A stretch of 64,000 nt of DNA from an uncultured Verrucomicrobiae bacterium (GTDB lineage: Bacteria > Verrucomicrobiota > Verrucomicrobiia > Chthoniobacterales > UBA10450): NCBI GenBank assembly GCA_963726745.1, contig CAVSDR010000003.1, positions 608,001 to 672,000 on the forward strand, given 5' to 3'. The notes under the pieces are model-generated. The model was not told where the DNA came from. It made no database searches and worked only from the letters and a program-made list of their open reading frames with translations. The position numbers and the translations under genes are program-made. Positions 23,906 through 31,745 of this stretch are shown one piece after another (the stretch's first letter is position 1; every line of letters begins with the position of its first letter).

Positions 23906-25131
23906 TCTTGGAATTCGCGTGCGCCACAGGCTACGGACCTGTGCGCGATGCGGTATCCTTCTGCGCGCAAAACCGACCGCAGGACCAGACACTTCACTGC
24001 CCGTCCAGCCATCTATCGTCGTTAGTGCGCTGGGCGGATCGATCTTCTCGTAGCTTCGCGAAGGCGATTGTCGCCGGATCCGGTTCTCACTTTCGATTCA
24101 CAGAGGGTTCGGCGAGGAACCAAACCCTCCCCGGCGCGCTCGGAGGATTGGTGAGTCGGTCGAGATCATCGGGCAACTCCCGAAAAGTCATGCAATTGCG
24201 CCGGATGTGAAAGCAAACTGCACGATTCTGGAACTAACCCCGGCGCCCCTCCGAAACCTTGCCGCCTTCCCCTTCCAACCTGTGATAGACGAAAAAAGGT
24301 TCGCCTTTAAAGACGAAGAGCGTTTTGCCGTTCAGATCCAGCGTGGTTGTCGCGTCCTTCGTTTAATTCTCGTTAGGTCTTTGACCGTCGACGTTTCTCC
24401 TCACATGGAATCCGGATAAGTGGACGTGGAAGGCACTCGACGAGGATTACGACCTGTTGGGGCAAGGTTCTTGACGGCCGATGGAGCTGCGGACTGTCTC
24501 GGTATCGCGCGGCGACGCGTATTCCGTTCGCAGGTCGGGAGCAGCGCGCATCTGGCACGGGTGTAGTCACTCAGAAAGTCAAGAACGATATCCAATCGAG
24601 ATCGGAGGTATCGACTCGATGGAGCTTCGACGTATCGCTCGAGCAAAGCCGAAAGCAGTTACTGTCTCGAGCGCGGCTCAATGAGCCCAGCTCGCCACAG
24701 CGATCCAAACACCAGGCCGGCTTGATAGCCATCTCGACTGATGATCCGCCGCGCTAGAGGAATCGTGGCGTGGGTTTTTGCTTCGCGCGGTTACTCTCCG
24801 ATAGTTCTCGCCGAAGAGATGCTGCGGCAGAGCGCTTCTGGCGAGCGTCCGCTCCCCTAAACGGGAACGGCTGATCAGCGCGATCTCGTAGAAAGCGTCA
24901 TAGCCCATTTCCGACGTAGATGCGCGTTTGCGGCATCGACTTCGCACATGTTTTGTGACTTGGGCACTGGCTTCACTCACGTCATCACACCGACCTATCG
25001 GAGATCGCCGCGGCACGCCGGTTGATCCGCAGAGACCTGTGCCCGTTTCCCGAACGCAGGTATGCTTCGTCGCGCACGCCGCCGCTCAGCGTGACCGAGA
25101 TCAAGCGCATTCGAAATGAACGAAGACAAAG

Positions 25132-25254
25132 GCTCAACCTGTAGTGATGCAGCTAACCGCGGGCCGCTCCCTACCAACTTCTGGGATGGCTACCACAATT
25201 CCAGCTGCACCATGCGCCGCCCCGCCAGCGGTAGCTGATCTTGTCTCGTTAGGC
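25132..25254 (+). other. attC recombination site (123 bp)
   Basis: R'' GCTCAAC (25132), L'' arm ATGCAGCTAACCGC (25147-25160) pairing with GCGGTAGCTGAT (25228-25239) with two unpaired extra bases, R' GTTAGGC (25248-25254). Confidence 0.8.
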
Positions 25255-25905
25255 CTGAGCTAAAGCGCCTCACGCCGACATTGTGCCCGCGGTGCTCATC
25301 ATAGGTGCGTCGATTGCTCGCGCAGAACCAGACGTTGCCAACGATCAAGAAACGCGTTCGAACGTCGAATTGGCGGTCACCGGATTGAATTGGCCGAACC
25401 CAAAACAGATTCTTTGCGGACCCAAGGCTGTCGCCTTGATAGCCCAGGGGACCCAAGATGGGCAGAAGTTTCCTGCCATTCATGTCAGCAAGGACGCCAG
25501 CAGGAATCTTCTTGCCCCGTGAGGGTAATAAGGGCAACGAGTATCCATTCTCGTCAGCTGGATACGGCGCGAGTCAGCTGCATCGAGAATTTATCTCGTC
25601 ATTTACGGCATTATCGCCGGAGATATGAACATCCGCTGCACGAAGACATTTACGAAGAATAGGCTGCTCAGCGCATATCACGAGTCCTCCGCCGTCGATT
25701 TCGGATTGAGCGGCATCGCACTCACGTTCAGACGAGAGTACCGGGATAACATTTTGATTACGTTCGGCCGGTAGATTGGCAGCGTCAGATCAGGAGATGC
25801 TCTTTTCGGCGCGTTTCGCAAGCTGGGTCGGGTACAGCGACCACGCACCGGTGATGTCGTCGACATCTCGGTTCCGAAAGACCTAACCATGCGATGCAGA
25901 TATGG

Positions 25906-25986
25906 GGGCAGAAATAGTCAGCTTCATAATCTCGCTGCGCTTTGTTGGCGGGAACGAAGTTATATGAAGCTGACCCCGAGTCGCTT
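25906..25986. repeat. Palindromic MITE/REP-like element, copy 1 (degenerate)
   Basis: GTCAGCTTCATAA...TATGAAGCTGACCCCGAGTCGCTT; about 80 bp similar to 27486-27564. Confidence 0.85.
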
Positions 25987-26006
25987 TCCCTGACGCGCCG
26001 CTTCTC

Positions 26007-26462
26007 ATGCGTCTGGTTTTCGGCCAGGAACGGATGTGGGCCGGGTGGGCGTGGTTTCTTGGTGACATTGCCATTTTTTGGGGCAGCATTGCTTTCGCCG
26101 TGAACATGTCCAGGTGGACGAGAAGACTAGCCGATGACCGCTCTCCGGTGGATTCTATTCATTCCCGCAGCGTTGTCGTAGGAATGCTCGCGAGACTCCA
26201 TTTACGCTTGTTTCCGGCCTTTTTTCCGGCCATCAATGAGTTCATCGTGTGCGGCGCCGCGGGCGCCGTCACAATGATAATGGTGGGTTTGCGCGTCGCC
26301 CCGAAGCGGAGCGCGGCCGCGAAGTGGACATTGATCGCGATTACTGCTCTCTTGGGCGCACTTGCCGGACTCGGTTCGCTCGTAGGGTACCGACAAGCTG
26401 CAGGCGGCGATTGGGATCACTACGTTTCTTGTCGCGATTTCTTTTTGGGGCACCAGCGCTGA
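26007..26462 (+). pseudogene. Probable decayed cassette gene for a small membrane protein
   Basis: Hydrophobic segments (CGAAGAVTMIMVGLRVAP..AAKWTLIAITALLGALAG); ends just before an attC left end at 26477. Confidence 0.4.
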
Positions 26463-27485
26463 TGACATCGCCAACGCCTAACCATGCGATAGGCTGTGCA
26501 ATAAGTCTGAAGCCAAGAAAATCGGGCGAACAAGGAGGACCTATAAATCGCTTCTATTTTCTCTGAGGATGTTTCGATGGTCTTTTCTGAGCCGTCTTAT
26601 GTGCTCCGGCGACTTATTACACATCCTCGCGATGCAGCGAACCCCAGCCGGCTCTGCGTCCACATTTCCATGACTAAACCCCTAACTCCATCAGCGACTG
26701 CCTCCGGCAGAGCGTCGCTGATCTTGTCCCCGCTTAGACTCACCATGTGGTGGAAACACGTGCTCGAATTTTGATTGTCAGCGGCCATCCTGTCAGAGGC
26801 GGCGGCTTTTGGGCTTGCCAAGCAGAGGCATCTTCAGTTCGCGGGCATTCCGAAGCCGCCGTTTCATCGGTTATCTCGGCCAGGGGATGATCGCCGAAGA
26901 AGTGCCGCGATCGAGCCGGTCTTCGGCTCGTTCGCCAAGAAGAAGATGTTTGCAGAAAGCGCCTGGCGGCGCTCCGTCAGGGCGCGGCTCCAATTGATTG
27001 GCATCTCTCCTACTCATCATCAGCTTCTTCCTCGGCGTTTGGTATTTCGTCGTCAGCTTGGCAGTGTTCGTTCTGCTCTCCATCGGCCACATACCGCCAT
27101 CAGCCAAGAACAACAACGCTACTCACGTGCACACGCTCATTTCGAACATATAAAGTGGATCAGGCCCTTGGAGGCGCCGAAGCGACTGGCACCGCATTCG
27201 TAGCGAGAATCTCGCCAATGGTGCTTTGATGCCGTCCTCCGTTCAGACCGAGTTCCAGCAGATGCTGTCGGCACATCTATTCCAGGACGCGTTCGAAACA
27301 TCACCGGTTAACACAGCGTCACTCCTGCGCCTCCGCTCGCTATGCATTGCGGCCATAGAGGAAGAGTTTGGCGCGTGAAAAGCCCTAACCAGGCGAAGCA
27401 GACATGTGGTTAGTGCAAGAAGTTTGTTTTCATGGTGAGTTTTCTTTCTGTTCCCCTCAAGAGGAGGGGTTTTGGGAACCGCAGT

Positions 27486-27564
27486 GGGCAGAAGGGGTCA
27501 GCTTCATAATCTCGCTGCGGTTTCTGGCGGGAGCGGAAGTTATGAAGCTGACCCCGAGTCGCTT
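27486..27564. repeat. Palindromic MITE/REP-like element, copy 2
   Basis: Perfect 16-bp inverted repeat GGGGTCAGCTTCATAA (27494-27509) / TTATGAAGCTGACCCC (27540-27555). Confidence 0.88.
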
Positions 27565-27912: not shown

Positions 27913-28270
27913 GCTCGGACCGAGATTACGCACGCTCGGGTCGAGTTGACCGACACTCGGGATGAGTTGACCGACGCTCGGATTCGAATGACCGACGCTC
28001 GGGTTGAAATGATCGAGGCTCGGGTCGAGTTGAGCGACGCTCGGATTGAGTGGGAGGCCTGCTCGGGTGCGGTGGAGGCAGGCTCGGGGCGCGTGGGACG
28101 AGGCTCGGGTGGTGATGCGGCGCGCTCGGGACGGAAGGACCAGCGCTCGGGGCGCGGCGCGGACCGCTCGGGTCGAGTGGGACGACGCTCCGGGTGAAGC
28201 GAACGATGCTGGGGCTGAGTGGGAAGAGGCTGGGGCGGGCGCGAAGCGGGCTGGGGACGGGATGGGGGGA
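27913..28270 (+). repeat. 21-bp-period tandem array with a conserved GCTCGG core (17 units)
   Basis: Core at 27913, 27934, 27955 (ACTCGG), 27976, 27997, 28018, 28039, 28061, 28082, 28103, 28124, 28145, 28166, 28187 (GCTCCG), and 28208, 28229, 28250 (GCTGGG). All spacings are 21 except one of 22. Confidence 0.92.
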
Positions 28271-28327
28271 GCGTGGGGCGGGCTTTCTCGTTGATTTTGC
28301 CTAACAACTTGTTCAATCTCCCGGGCC

Positions 28328-29022
28328 ATGAACGACGATCAAGAAAATCGACGGGGACGGGCGGGCGCCGTCTCGGGCGTGCTGGCGAAATATCAAACGG
28401 CGATCGCCGCGGTGCCGGCGATCGTGGCCCAGCAGACGGAGCTGAATGATTCCATCGCGTTGGTGGACGAGATTGCCCAAGGGCAGGCCTCGCCGACCAC
28501 GGGTGTGACCTTCCAACAAGGAGGCGTTGACCGACCTGATGGTGCGCAAAACGGTGCAGGTGGCCGGGCAATTGAAAGCTTTTGCCAGCGTGACGAACAA
28601 CAAGGCCCTGGAGGAGAAGGCCAACGTGAGCCGTTCAACGTTCATGAAGAAGCGCGACGAGCAGCGCGATGAAGTGGCGCAGGAAATCCATGATCTGGCC
28701 AGCGCGCAACGTGGCGGCGCTGGCGGACTACGGCACCACGGCGGCCACGCTCTCTGCGCTGCAGACGCGGATCGACGTTTACTCGCAGGCAGTGCAGTCG
28801 CCGCGGATCGCCAAAAGCCATGTGGCCGGGCTGACGCAACTGCTAGAAAAGGAAATTCGCCGGATGGACACGATCCAGCGGGAGCGGTTGGATCCGTTGA
28901 TGGAGCAATTCAGCGATTCGAACGAGATGCTCTACAACGAATACCAGAGCGCCCGCACGCTGGTGGACAATAAGGGCGGCGGGAAGAAGACCGCCAACCC
29001 GCCGGCTAAACCGACACCCTAG
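28328..29022 (+). CDS. Uncharacterised predicted alpha-helical protein (about 230 aa) split by two apparent indels (about 28510 and 28706)
   Basis: Three overlapping ORFs join into MNDDQENRR...GVT/KEALTDLM...IHDLASA/NVAALADYG...SPR...LDPLMEQF...YNEYQSARTLVD. Confidence 0.75.
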
Positions 29023-29078
29023 AGCGTGCGGCGGCCGCGCGCTCTTGACCTGCGGCAGGCAGAGCAGAGAGTCTTCCC

Positions 29079-29288
29079 ATGGTTTTGACCGCCGTGCTCA
29101 TTCCAGCCGAGGACGGTGGCTTCGTCGCGCTGAACCCTGAGACAGGGTCTACCACGCAGGGCGAGAGCGTTGCTGAAGCGGTCGCCAACCTCCAAGAGGC
29201 GACGGAGCTTTACCTCGAGGAGTTCCCGTTGCACAGCACTGGGCAACCGCTGGTTACCACCTTCGAGGTCGCGGTTCTGCATGCCTAG
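29079..29288 (+). CDS. hicB: HicB-family antitoxin (short, no DNA-binding domain)
   Basis: EDGGFVA..PE.G..TQGES..EA.ANLQEA.ELYLE motif. Confidence 0.92.
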   Translation: MVLTAVLIPAEDGGFVALNPETGSTTQGESVAEAVANLQEATELYLEEFPLHSTGQPLVTTFEVAVLHA

Positions 29289-29496
29289 ACTGCCGCGGGT
29301 TTCCGGCGCGGAGGCGGTGCGAACTCTCGAGCGTTTAGGGTTCTCCGTCGTTCGGCAGCGTGGCAGTCACATCATCATGCGCAGAGGAGGGTCTGGGTGC
29401 GTCGTTCCGAATCATCGGGAGATCAAGGCTGGCACTCTCGCGGGCGTTCTGCGGCAGGCGGGAGTTTCCATAGAGGAATTCATTTCTGCGCAATGA
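29281..29496 (+). CDS. hicA: HicA-family mRNA interferase toxin
   Basis: [28 protein letters not shown]...[19 protein letters not shown]; overlaps the hicB stop. Confidence 0.93.
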
Positions 29497-29707
29497 CACC
29501 CGCCCTAGAGCGTGCGGCGGCCGTGCGCGGCGATATCCAGCACGGCAAGTATTCCTTTCCCCGGCGAACCGAGCACGGCAGGGGCGGCGGCGGGTGGCTT
29601 TCCCGCCACGTCTCCCCATGGCGGCGGCGTGGCCCCTGCTCTTTTGCAATGCCAAATCCTTCATGGTAACCTCCCTGTCCCTCATTTTGGGGGCGCGCTT
29701 ACCTCTT

Positions 29708-31745
29708 ATGGCCCAACCAGATCGCAACTCGAAAAAGGAGAACAAACCCGGCGGCACCGACCCCAGTTTCAACTGGCGCGGCGTGGTCCTGATCGCCATC
29801 GCTTTCTCCCTCATTGCCCTCGCGGTGCTCTTCCGCGGCGGCGCCTACGCCAACGTGGAGGATGTGCCTTACAATCGCTTCCTCGAGCTGCTGGAAAACA
29901 AGCAGATCGCGAACGACAAAAACTTCCCGCTCCAGCTGGTGGTCGAGGAGGGTGTGCCCACGCAAACGCTCCGCGGCTATTACATCCGCCAGGCGACCGG
30001 CCCGAACCAGGCCGCGCAGGTCCCCTTCCGCACGACCATTTTCCTGAACTACAACACGAACCTGCAGGATAAGCTGAGCGAGGCCGGGATTCAGCCCGCG
30101 ATCAAGCGCGACTCGAACGTCTGGATGCAGACGCTCATGGGCTTCCTCCCGATCGCGTTTTTCCTGCTCGTGCTCTACTTCCTCTTCCGCCAGCAGATCC
30201 GCATGGCCGGCAAGGGCGCGCTCAACTTCGGCAAGTCGAAGGCGCGCATGCTCGCGCGCGACAAGAACAAGATCACCTTCAAGGACGTCGCCGGCGTCGA
30301 GGAAGCGAAGGACGAAGTGACCGAGCTGGTCGAGTTCCTGCGCGATCCGAAGAAGTTCCAGAAACTCGGCGGCCGCATCCCGAAAGGCGTGCTCCTGGTC
30401 GGCCCTCCGGGAACGGGCAAGACGCTCCTGGCTCGCGCGATTGCCGGCGAGGCCGATGTGCCGTTTTTCTCGATCAGCGGTTCGGACTTCGTGGAAATGT
30501 TTGTCGGCGTCGGCGCGAGCCGCGTGCGCGACATGTTCGAGCAGGGCAAGAAGAGCGCGCCGTGCATTATTTTCATCGATGAGATCGACGCCGTGGGCCG
30601 GCATCGCGGCCATGGCGTGGGCGGCGGGCATGATGAGCGCGAGCAGACGCTCAATGCGCTGCTCGTCGAGATGGATGGCTTCGACACGCAGGAAGGCGTG
30701 ATCATCATCGCCGCGACCAACCGCCCCGATGTGCTCGATCCGGCGCTGCTGCGTCCCGGGCCGTTTCGACCGCCAGATCACGGTGAACTTGCCGGATGTG
30801 AAGGGCCGCGAGGAAATCCTGCGCGTTCATTCCAAGAAGGTGAAGCTCGCGGAAGGCGTCGACCTCCAGGTGGTCGCGCGCGGCACGCCGGGCTACTCCG
30901 GCGCGGAATTAGCCAACGTGATCAACGAAGCGGCACTGCTGGCCGCACGTCGCGGGCTCAAGGGAATCACGCTCAAGGAACTCGAAGAAGCGCGCGACAA
31001 GGTCCGCTGGGGCAAGGAACGCCGCAGCCTGGCGTTGAGCGAAAAGGAGAAGACGAACACCGCTTACCACGAAGCCGGCCACGCGCTCCTGCTCGAACTG
31101 CTCCCGCACACCGAGCCGTTGCATAAGGTCACGATTATCCCGCGCGGCCCTTCGTTAGGCAGCACCATGTGGCTCCCGGAAGAGGACAAATACACCAATC
31201 GTAAAAACGAACTCCTCGCCAGCCTGGTGGTGAAAATGGGCGGCCGCGTCGCGGAAGAAATCGTCTTTGGCGACGTGACCAACGGCGCCAGCGGCGACAT
31301 CAAGATGGCGACGAACGTCGCCCGCCGGATGGTCTGCGAATGGGGCATGAGCGAGAAGATGGGCATGGTGGAATACGGCGAGCACGAAGACTACGTCTTC
31401 CTCGGCCGCGACATCTCGCGGGCGCGGGATTACAGCGAAGCGACCGCGGAAGAGATCGACCGCGAAGTGCGCAAGCTGATCGACGACGCTTACGCGAAAG
31501 CGAAGAGCGAGTTGACCAACCATCGCGACAAGCTCGAGATCATCGCCCGGGCGCTGTTGGAATTCGAAACGCTCGATGGCGCGCAGATCCGCGACATCAT
31601 CGAGCACGGCCGGATGTTGAATCCGCCTCCGGGCCCCGACGCCAAGGGTCCCGACATGCCGGCGGAAAAGCCGCCCAAGCAAGTCGTGCTCGCGCCGGAA
31701 GTGAATCCTCCGCTCCCCGGCGGACTGAGCGGCGCCCCGGCCTAG
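29708..31745 (+). CDS. ftsH: ATP-dependent zinc metalloprotease FtsH; apparent 1-bp insertion near 30760
   Basis: Two TM helices, [25 protein letters not shown] split across frames, and HEAGH. Confidence 0.96.

Follow-up and report, generated by a model that had tools for sequence, protein, structure and literature searches.

The array of 21-bp repeats and the gene directly after it, in the stretch of 64,000 nucleotides analysed here (the window), look like one copy of a widespread and undescribed gene-plus-repeat unit. The pairing recurs among relatives of the gene, with the array on the same side and in the same orientation. The period stays constant while the core sequence changes, the arrays carry no coding signature, and the spread of the unit is patchy and multi-copy. 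The array was read as a phased docking lattice of duplex DNA for the cognate protein, whose putative binding would repress its own promoter; this reading is held tentatively, at a confidence slightly short of even. The features of the window are summarized in Table 1.

Table 1. Features around the array and its downstream gene (positions are those of the window)
Feature	Position	Strand	Description
Array	27913..28270	+	17 units, 21 bp each except one of 22 bp; core changing from GCTCGG to GCTGGG at the 3' end; apparently non-coding partner element of the downstream gene
Decayed 18th unit (GCGTGG), running into the promoter region	28271..28291	+	
Weak sigma70-like promoter candidate	28291..28319	+	TTGATT, 17 bp, CAATCT; 8 bp before the ATG; score 7.7, under the cut-off of 8
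Gene of a ~230-aa all-helical orphan family	28328..29022	+	Split over three frames by breaks at about 28514 and 28712; structural model taken from the intact paralog C4:151261-151947
Left copy of a 21-bp direct repeat around the toxin-antitoxin pair	29017..29037	+	Neighbour; overlaps the stop codon of the window gene
HicB-like antitoxin (29079-29288) and HicA toxin (29281-29496)	29079..29496	+	Neighbour, outside the unit
Right copy of the direct repeat around the toxin-antitoxin pair	29503..29523	+	Neighbour

The first unit of the array lies at 27913, and 17 units follow one another at a period of 21 bp with a single 22-bp step (unit 7, 28039-28060). Twelve units carry the core GCTCGG and the last three (units 15-17) GCTGGG, with ACTCGG in unit 3 and GCTCCG in unit 14; on the + strand, 166 of the 358 bases are G. 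The period-21 score was 94, compared to a maximum of 25 in 1000 shuffles. The recount and the score bear out the G-rich, 17-unit array with a drifting core that a first-pass annotation of this DNA had described. Its estimate of about 60 bp between array and start codon was close to the measured 57 bp (end of unit 17 at 28270, ATG at 28328), and GCT is indeed a minority alanine codon, being 16 of 275 in five long ORFs of the window. The 15-bp intervals, which it had called variable spacers, do vary in sequence but are not independent: they are related copies, with a mean pairwise identity of 6.9 of 15 against 4.55 after shuffling (maximum 5.13), and intervals 2, 3, 6 and 13 have 10-14 of the 15 bases in common.

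All three pieces of the split gene matched the family profile. Its two breaks are likely assembly errors, since the assembly has further breaks inside ftsH (window 29709-31745, a frameshift) and in a paralog; they may also be true decay, as many relatives are truly truncated. Two paralogs are present in the genome, one of them intact (C4:151261-151947), and the search started from this paralog gathered 6,328 clusters at 50% identity (E up to 0.001). Among 112 members no Pfam family matched more than one, none of 11 proteins was matched by NCBIfam, PHROGs and PDB sequence searches gave no usable match, and PADLOC returned only three weak partial matches among 8 proteins. Sequence searches of plasmids, phages and viral contigs (tblastn for plasmids and phages) were likewise without usable match. 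The AlphaFold2 model of the intact paralog was all-helical with long helices only (pLDDT 97). Comparison of this model with the PDB (Foldseek, VIA-align) and with viral models revealed no clear structural match; the best (Z 9.0, rmsd 2.7, 100 residues aligned) falls in the range of generic helical bundles. The description of an uncharacterised helical protein of about 230 aa is in agreement with these results. The protein looks like two helical modules in tandem, and the check for internal duplication, N-half against C-half, gave only 1.7%. The nearest Pfam-bearing cluster by language-model features carries DUF6261 (PF19775) on 32% of its members; its score of 0.87, under the 0.9 mark, makes it a lead only, and PF19775 had no match in the 112 members or in this genome.

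The flanks were scored at 123 loci with a match, or 100 after removal of identical ones; the window and its two paralogs are included, and related genomes are not independent of each other. The threshold for an array was a score of 36, where 400 random 1-kb pieces of this genome gave a 99th percentile of 29 and a maximum of 37. Of the 65 genes with an intact 5' end, 51 had at least 500 bp of upstream flank; an array was present upstream in 44 of these and lacking in 7, compared to one downstream array among 50 genes. The 5' end is missing at 35 of the 100 loci, and 5'-truncated genes had an upstream array in only 2 of 25 cases. The first-pass annotation had called for this survey of homologous flanks for 21-bp periodicity, proposing that array and protein form a two-part system and that homologs without arrays, or a translated array with free synonymous change, would speak against it. 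The pairing recurs across the family, and neither of the two opposing outcomes was what was found.

The sole downstream array belongs to the intact paralog (C4:151261-152334, L001), at a distance of about 115 bp and seemingly inverted relative to the upstream array of a relative. A nearly identical array type stands alone at C3:185916-186373. Inversion relative to the gene was considered as a general feature and rejected, as the upstream arrays all point one way.

The best period was 21 or 42 in 40 of the 44 upstream arrays, which have 7-26 units (median 14). Of 912 steps between units, 865 were 21 bases, 38 were 20 and 9 were 22, so that the 22-bp step of the window, earlier suspected to be an indel error, need not be an error. 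Three relatives depart from this pitch, with 43-bp double units (L129, upstream flank), alternating 21/22-bp units (L064) or tandem 20-mers (L044). The core varies by lineage (GCTCGG, TCGCGG, TCGCCC, CCGGGA, AAACAAC and others), and within arrays the core positions are near-invariant while the adjoining positions are free. Identity between units stayed level with distance (11.8-12.5 of 21 bases at lags 1-7), the pattern of sites kept close to a consensus. No growth polarity was seen, the distal third being more uniform in 36 of 60 arrays, and close relatives differ by gain or loss of whole 21-mers.

A scan of the whole genome revealed six 21-bp arrays of five unit types; periods of 19, 20, 22 and 23 gave 0, 1, 1 and 0 arrays. 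Five unit types among six arrays fit cognate pairs better than one host factor. A young, nearly perfect array precedes a 206-aa gene coding for a helical part plus FN3 (C6:2205-2822; locus C6:1461-2822, L004), with a gene resembling a type I restriction-modification methylase on the other side. Among the best 30 matches to this protein, 26 of 28 intact genes had an upstream array and 2 of 27 a downstream one. A third family is represented by a 232-aa orphan (C2:253504-254199) with an array directly before it (C2:253187-254199, L162), between a LuxR-type and an Mrr-like restriction gene; among its best 30 matches, intact genes had an upstream array in 17 of 20 cases and a downstream one in 0 of 23. 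The FN3 family has the period, side and size class in common with the window family, which differs in having no beta domain. The weak alignment of its helical part to both halves of the window family (hhalign probability 34% and 27%, E 4e-4 and 7e-4; reversed controls below 1%) is no more than suggestive of homology, and the fold search with the helix-FN3 model matched through the FN3 part only. For the third family, hhalign gave no link to either of the others (below 1%). Its members L165, L166 and L177 have an extra strong repeat of period 16/24, probably 8 bp, upstream. Two arrays of the genome, at C3:185916 and C6:745884, have no such gene alongside.

These data bear on a further reading, judged to have a slight probability: that the array is carried along with the gene as a tandem repeat under neutral decay. 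In close pairs the arrays diverge about as fourfold-degenerate sites do (0.076 vs 0.017, 0.122 vs 0.137, 0.137 vs 0.189 and 0.208 vs 0.123), and fresh perfect expansions exist, as such a repeat would show. Against it, the period stays at 21 despite complete change of the core, in three protein families, periods next to 21 are nearly empty in this genome, and the core is near-invariant beside free positions.

The coding potential of the arrays was analysed with a test for synonymous excess on 68 arrays (42 of the all-helical and 26 of the FN3 family), leaving out 7 duplicates and 3 with too few distinct units. None of the 68 exceeded z 2 in the best of six frames, and the window gave z 1.4; in the positive control, 8 of 14 windows of the real gene exceeded z 2 (mean 2.6). 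Frameshifting steps of 20 or 22 bases occur in 22 of 72 arrays, with five 20-base steps in L044, four of which stand in tandem. The would-be wobble base of alanine in the commonest core is G in 97% of 128 units. These results support the earlier proposal that conservation is at the nucleic-acid level, and the arrays look non-coding. The alternative that the array encodes, or once encoded, a heptad-repeat peptide pairing with the helical protein is quite improbable. Some features favour it. The heptad frame of the window has no stop inside the units and its first half reads like a coiled coil; the arrays are most self-similar at shifts 9 and 6, a weak triplet pattern is seen in the commonest array type, and + strand frames are free of stops in 50 of 71 arrays against 35.6 expected. 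The - strand has an equal excess (49 of 71 against 38.0), and the heptad frame of several relatives contains stops.

Promoters of the sigma70-like type were scanned with weight tables and a cut-off of 8. In the relatives a separate promoter stands between array and gene, about 7-25 bases before the ATG; 23 of 33 score at least 10, and the mean is 11.4 compared to 5.1 for shuffled sequence. The array thus lies upstream of the gene's own promoter, and no promoter of this type points into it from either side, which would place the array outside the mRNA of the gene. The candidate of the window occupies the position of the relatives' clear promoter and was missing from a separate consensus scan; it would imply a nearly leaderless mRNA without the array. 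At 13 of 30 loci, against 4.3 expected, the best placement of the array core within the promoter falls inside the spacer between -35 and -10 and keeps the register of the array, whose last unit is 41-357 bp away. These loci belong mostly to one clade (10 of its 12 loci), the in-register core being in the majority in 3 of 10 clusters at 70% identity; it could be a fossil of units turned promoter.

An unlikely reading, which still takes a real share of the probability, is that of a repeat-RNA ribonucleoprotein like those of TIGR or VIPR: the array would be transcribed as a separate non-coding RNA and coated by the protein, each subunit taking 21 bases, gripping the core and leaving the variable part exposed. 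The orientation fixed relative to the gene would suit it, and steps of 20 and 22 would be tolerated by a flexible strand. The conserved Lys, Arg and Tyr residues of the family (K64, R68, R160, Y206, R210) also count for an RNA, as does the folding of the + strand in the window, which is better than shuffles (z -2.35). A short fixed core with a variable part is moreover the architecture of known guide arrays (Sun et al., bioRxiv 10.64898/2026.10.21.760802). On the other side, no promoter of the scanned type drives the array on either strand, folding of the + strand is flat over 44 arrays of the family (mean z +0.13), Rfam matched none of the arrays from 12 loci, and no nuclease or effector recurs as neighbour. 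The variable parts also speak against guides: contiguous matches of the intervals to the host genome numbered 1 exact and 35 with one mismatch, compared to 0-2 and 19-73 in six Markov controls. An apparent excess of such targets over plain shuffles (35 vs 8) had vanished under the Markov control and was rejected. The intervals being diverged copies of each other without matches beyond chance, the array by its sequence is not CRISPR-like and is no spacer library, and the repeat-spacer RNA put forward by the first-pass annotation found no support, on the same grounds and for want of a promoter of the scanned type on either strand. Near one family locus the Acido-Lenti-1 RNA motif (Rfam RF01687) was found, at L045:605-661.

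The docking of the protein on double-stranded DNA remained the favoured reading. The array would be a cis-acting element of degenerate docking sites with a pitch of about two helical turns, on which the protein of the adjacent gene would assemble cooperatively, one unit per repeat. The lattice would reach the promoter of the gene, so that the protein would limit its own expression, and each paralog would drift together with its own repeat sequence. DNA as the ligand, the adjacent protein as the binder and the autorepression are the parts that we infer. Candidate roles of the assembled lattice would be a sensor or defence switch, or a selfish maintenance element.

A box at the far end of some arrays may belong to this arrangement. 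The IHF consensus, as given in PMC9820253, is WATCARNNNNTTR. Within 120 bp of the far end of the array, an exact WATCARNNNNTTR box was present in 5 of 43 cases (0.1 expected; controls 0 of 39 and 0 of 38), and one with at most one mismatch in 12 of 43 (1.6 expected; controls 1 of 39 and 2 of 38); the box had first been spotted by eye. The box counts for the lattice; against it stand the lack of enrichment in the other two array-bearing families and the one HU/IHF gene found in this genome.

Several observations count against a DNA lattice. The protein has no recognised DNA-binding fold in the fold searches, and the median net charge of the family is -1. The first-pass annotation had linked 21 bp to two helical turns; this is plausible, but the 10/11-bp (10.5-bp) half-period was not seen in the arrays. 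Dyad symmetry is also missing: a palindrome in each unit, hinted at by units 1, 2, 6 and 13, was rejected for the all-helical family, where z averaged -0.08, exceeded 2 in 2 of 43 and was 0.1 in the window; the helix-FN3 family shows unit palindromes weakly (mean z 1.45, above 2 in 9 of 26). The self-similarity at shifts 9 and 6, the weak triplet pattern and the folding z of the window weigh in the same direction, as do the 7 of 51 intact genes without an array and the two gene-less arrays of the genome. The tandem 20-base steps of L044 would lose helical phase. Finally, the promoter core is mostly a matter of one clade, and the window itself has neither the in-register core nor the IHF box. 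The homodimer prediction score of 0.00 weighs neither for nor against.

On the docking-lattice reading, gene and array would form a small accessory unit whose two parts move and decay together, frequently next to restriction-modification genes and integron-like cassettes. The narrow profile found the family gene in 4 of 301 genomes of the phylum and the wide profile in 24 of 151 genomes of the taxonomic family, the 24 including the unpublished G739, G602 and G725, which enter into none of the other findings. Named records with relatives are mostly Verrucomicrobiota, while the nearest Atlas clusters are mostly Bacteroidota and Ignavibacteriota. The window locus lies beside ftsH on a 1.18-Mb contig, and in 10 of 10 congeners examined (the locus of the unpublished G746 being left out) the family gene was absent from the 1.5 kb before ftsH. 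This patchy, multi-copy and often truncated occurrence, together with the IHF-like box at the far end in some members and the orphan and inverted arrays of this genome, would also suit another reading. In it the array would be the end or arm of a small mobile element, bound, along with an IHF site, by a recombinase or transposase acting in trans, while the helical protein would be carried as cargo or serve as an accessory factor. Such an element was considered rather improbable. The neighbour survey covered 110 ORFs from 40 loci (121 picked, 11 over arrays dropped) and contained no integrase or transposase family, no partition NTPase or known centromere-binding fold, no cas family and no recurring nuclease or effector; no partner family recurred at unrelated loci. 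Neither is there a matching array on the other side of the gene (1 of 50) nor a plasmid or phage match, and the cores differ between copies of one genome. Methylase, HNH, ResIII, Schlafen-helicase, EVE or NOV_C genes stand upstream at 9 loci; we take these genes to be of the defence type.

The unit was compared with known repeat systems. Iteron arrays accompany a Rep initiator on iteron plasmids and secondary chromosomes. The plasmids pSC101, P1, F and R6K combine a 21-22-bp iteron pitch with an IHF site and autorepression by Rep. The present unit resembles them in its direct repeats at a pitch of about 21 bp beside one gene in fixed orientation (865 of 912 steps) and, in some members, in the IHF-like box at one end with a repeat core in the gene promoter. 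It differs in that the protein is no winged-helix Rep (Pfam, NCBIfam 0 of 11, fold searches), the array units conserve only 5-6 bp each, and the unit is chromosomal and multi-copy without plasmid or phage matches. Partition systems use centromere or operator arrays (parC-ParR, tubC-TubR, stb-StbA). The likeness lies in a protein predicted to spread on phased repeats that double as operator; the window family, unlike these, has no partition NTPase as neighbour and no ribbon-helix-helix or helix-turn-helix domain. Iterons measure 19-21 bp in PMC4948915.

CRISPR, TIGR-Tas and VIPR arrays have periods of 60-79, 18 and 5 nt according to Sun et al. (bioRxiv 10.64898/2026.10.21.760802). In these systems as in the present unit a short fixed core alternates with a variable part beside one protein family; here, in contrast, the period is 21 and the variable parts are copies of each other with no target found in the host genome. 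The unit is further set apart from CRISPR by its 6-bp core, its related intervals and the lack of a cas family among the neighbours. Cas, Nop and Vipr proteins were not matched in Pfam, NCBIfam or PHROGs or among the fold matches listed (best Z 9.0, in the generic-bundle range). By the defining features that were tested, the unit does not fall among the iteron-Rep, partition, CRISPR, TIGR or VIPR systems; it may still work like an iteron or operator array.

No description of the array-gene element was found in the literature searched, a search that lay outside subscription journals and bioRxiv supplements. The periods named in the periodicity survey of Sun et al. are 5, 7, 8, 10, 18 and 60-79, and the survey drops multiples of three that also peak at lag 3 (bioRxiv 10.64898/2026.10.21.760802); its supplements might list period-21 clusters. 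Surveys may miss such arrays because a period divisible by three resembles coding sequence. New here are the all-helical family, together with its counts and controls, the co-occurrence of three families in a single genome and the geometry of the promoter.

The 6,328 clusters of the family are unnamed, lack a Pfam model and have no relative of solved structure, yet a candidate ligand is built in, so that a single protein and a 350-bp fragment would suffice for a direct test of function. Should each paralog recognise its own repeat, the family would offer a new nucleic-acid-binding fold and, in nature, thousands of protein-site pairs that may be orthogonal. A pitch of 21 bases in three or more protein families of a single genome points to a common physical rule. 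The widest reading would be a large undescribed class of two-part elements. A compact helical module, either alone in tandem or joined to a beta domain (fibronectin-type or other), would read a nucleic-acid array of its own at a pitch of 21 bases, and in thousands of families protein and repeat code would have diverged hand in hand. At its boldest, this reading makes the array an RNA, the variable positions of which would program the protein, giving a fourth repeat-guided kind beside CRISPR, TIGR and VIPR. A small probability was assigned to this class.

The surroundings of the window gene were also inspected. The neighbouring toxin-antitoxin module noted by the first-pass annotation is present, the HicA toxin matching HicA_toxin with E 1e-17 and the HicB-like partner lying below the Pfam cut-off; it is no part of the unit, since no neighbour family recurs. 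To judge from the sequence, the pair sits as if inserted as a unit, bracketed by its own direct repeat. Repeats that we presume to be attC-like abut all three paralogs of this genome. At the third paralog (C6:735529-746240, L163) about 13 of them extend over 8.6 kb and are followed by a gene-less 21-bp array of the window type; cassettes may have been inserted there between gene and array. In the window, 24000-27420 has lower GC, attC-like ends (e.g. 25146-25253, 25882, 26477, 27384) and short ORFs without Pfam match; most probably these are integron-like cassettes in an array. Two similar copies of an imperfect inverted repeat, about 90 bp long, occur at 25891-25990 and 27486-27564, with short matches in many congeners.
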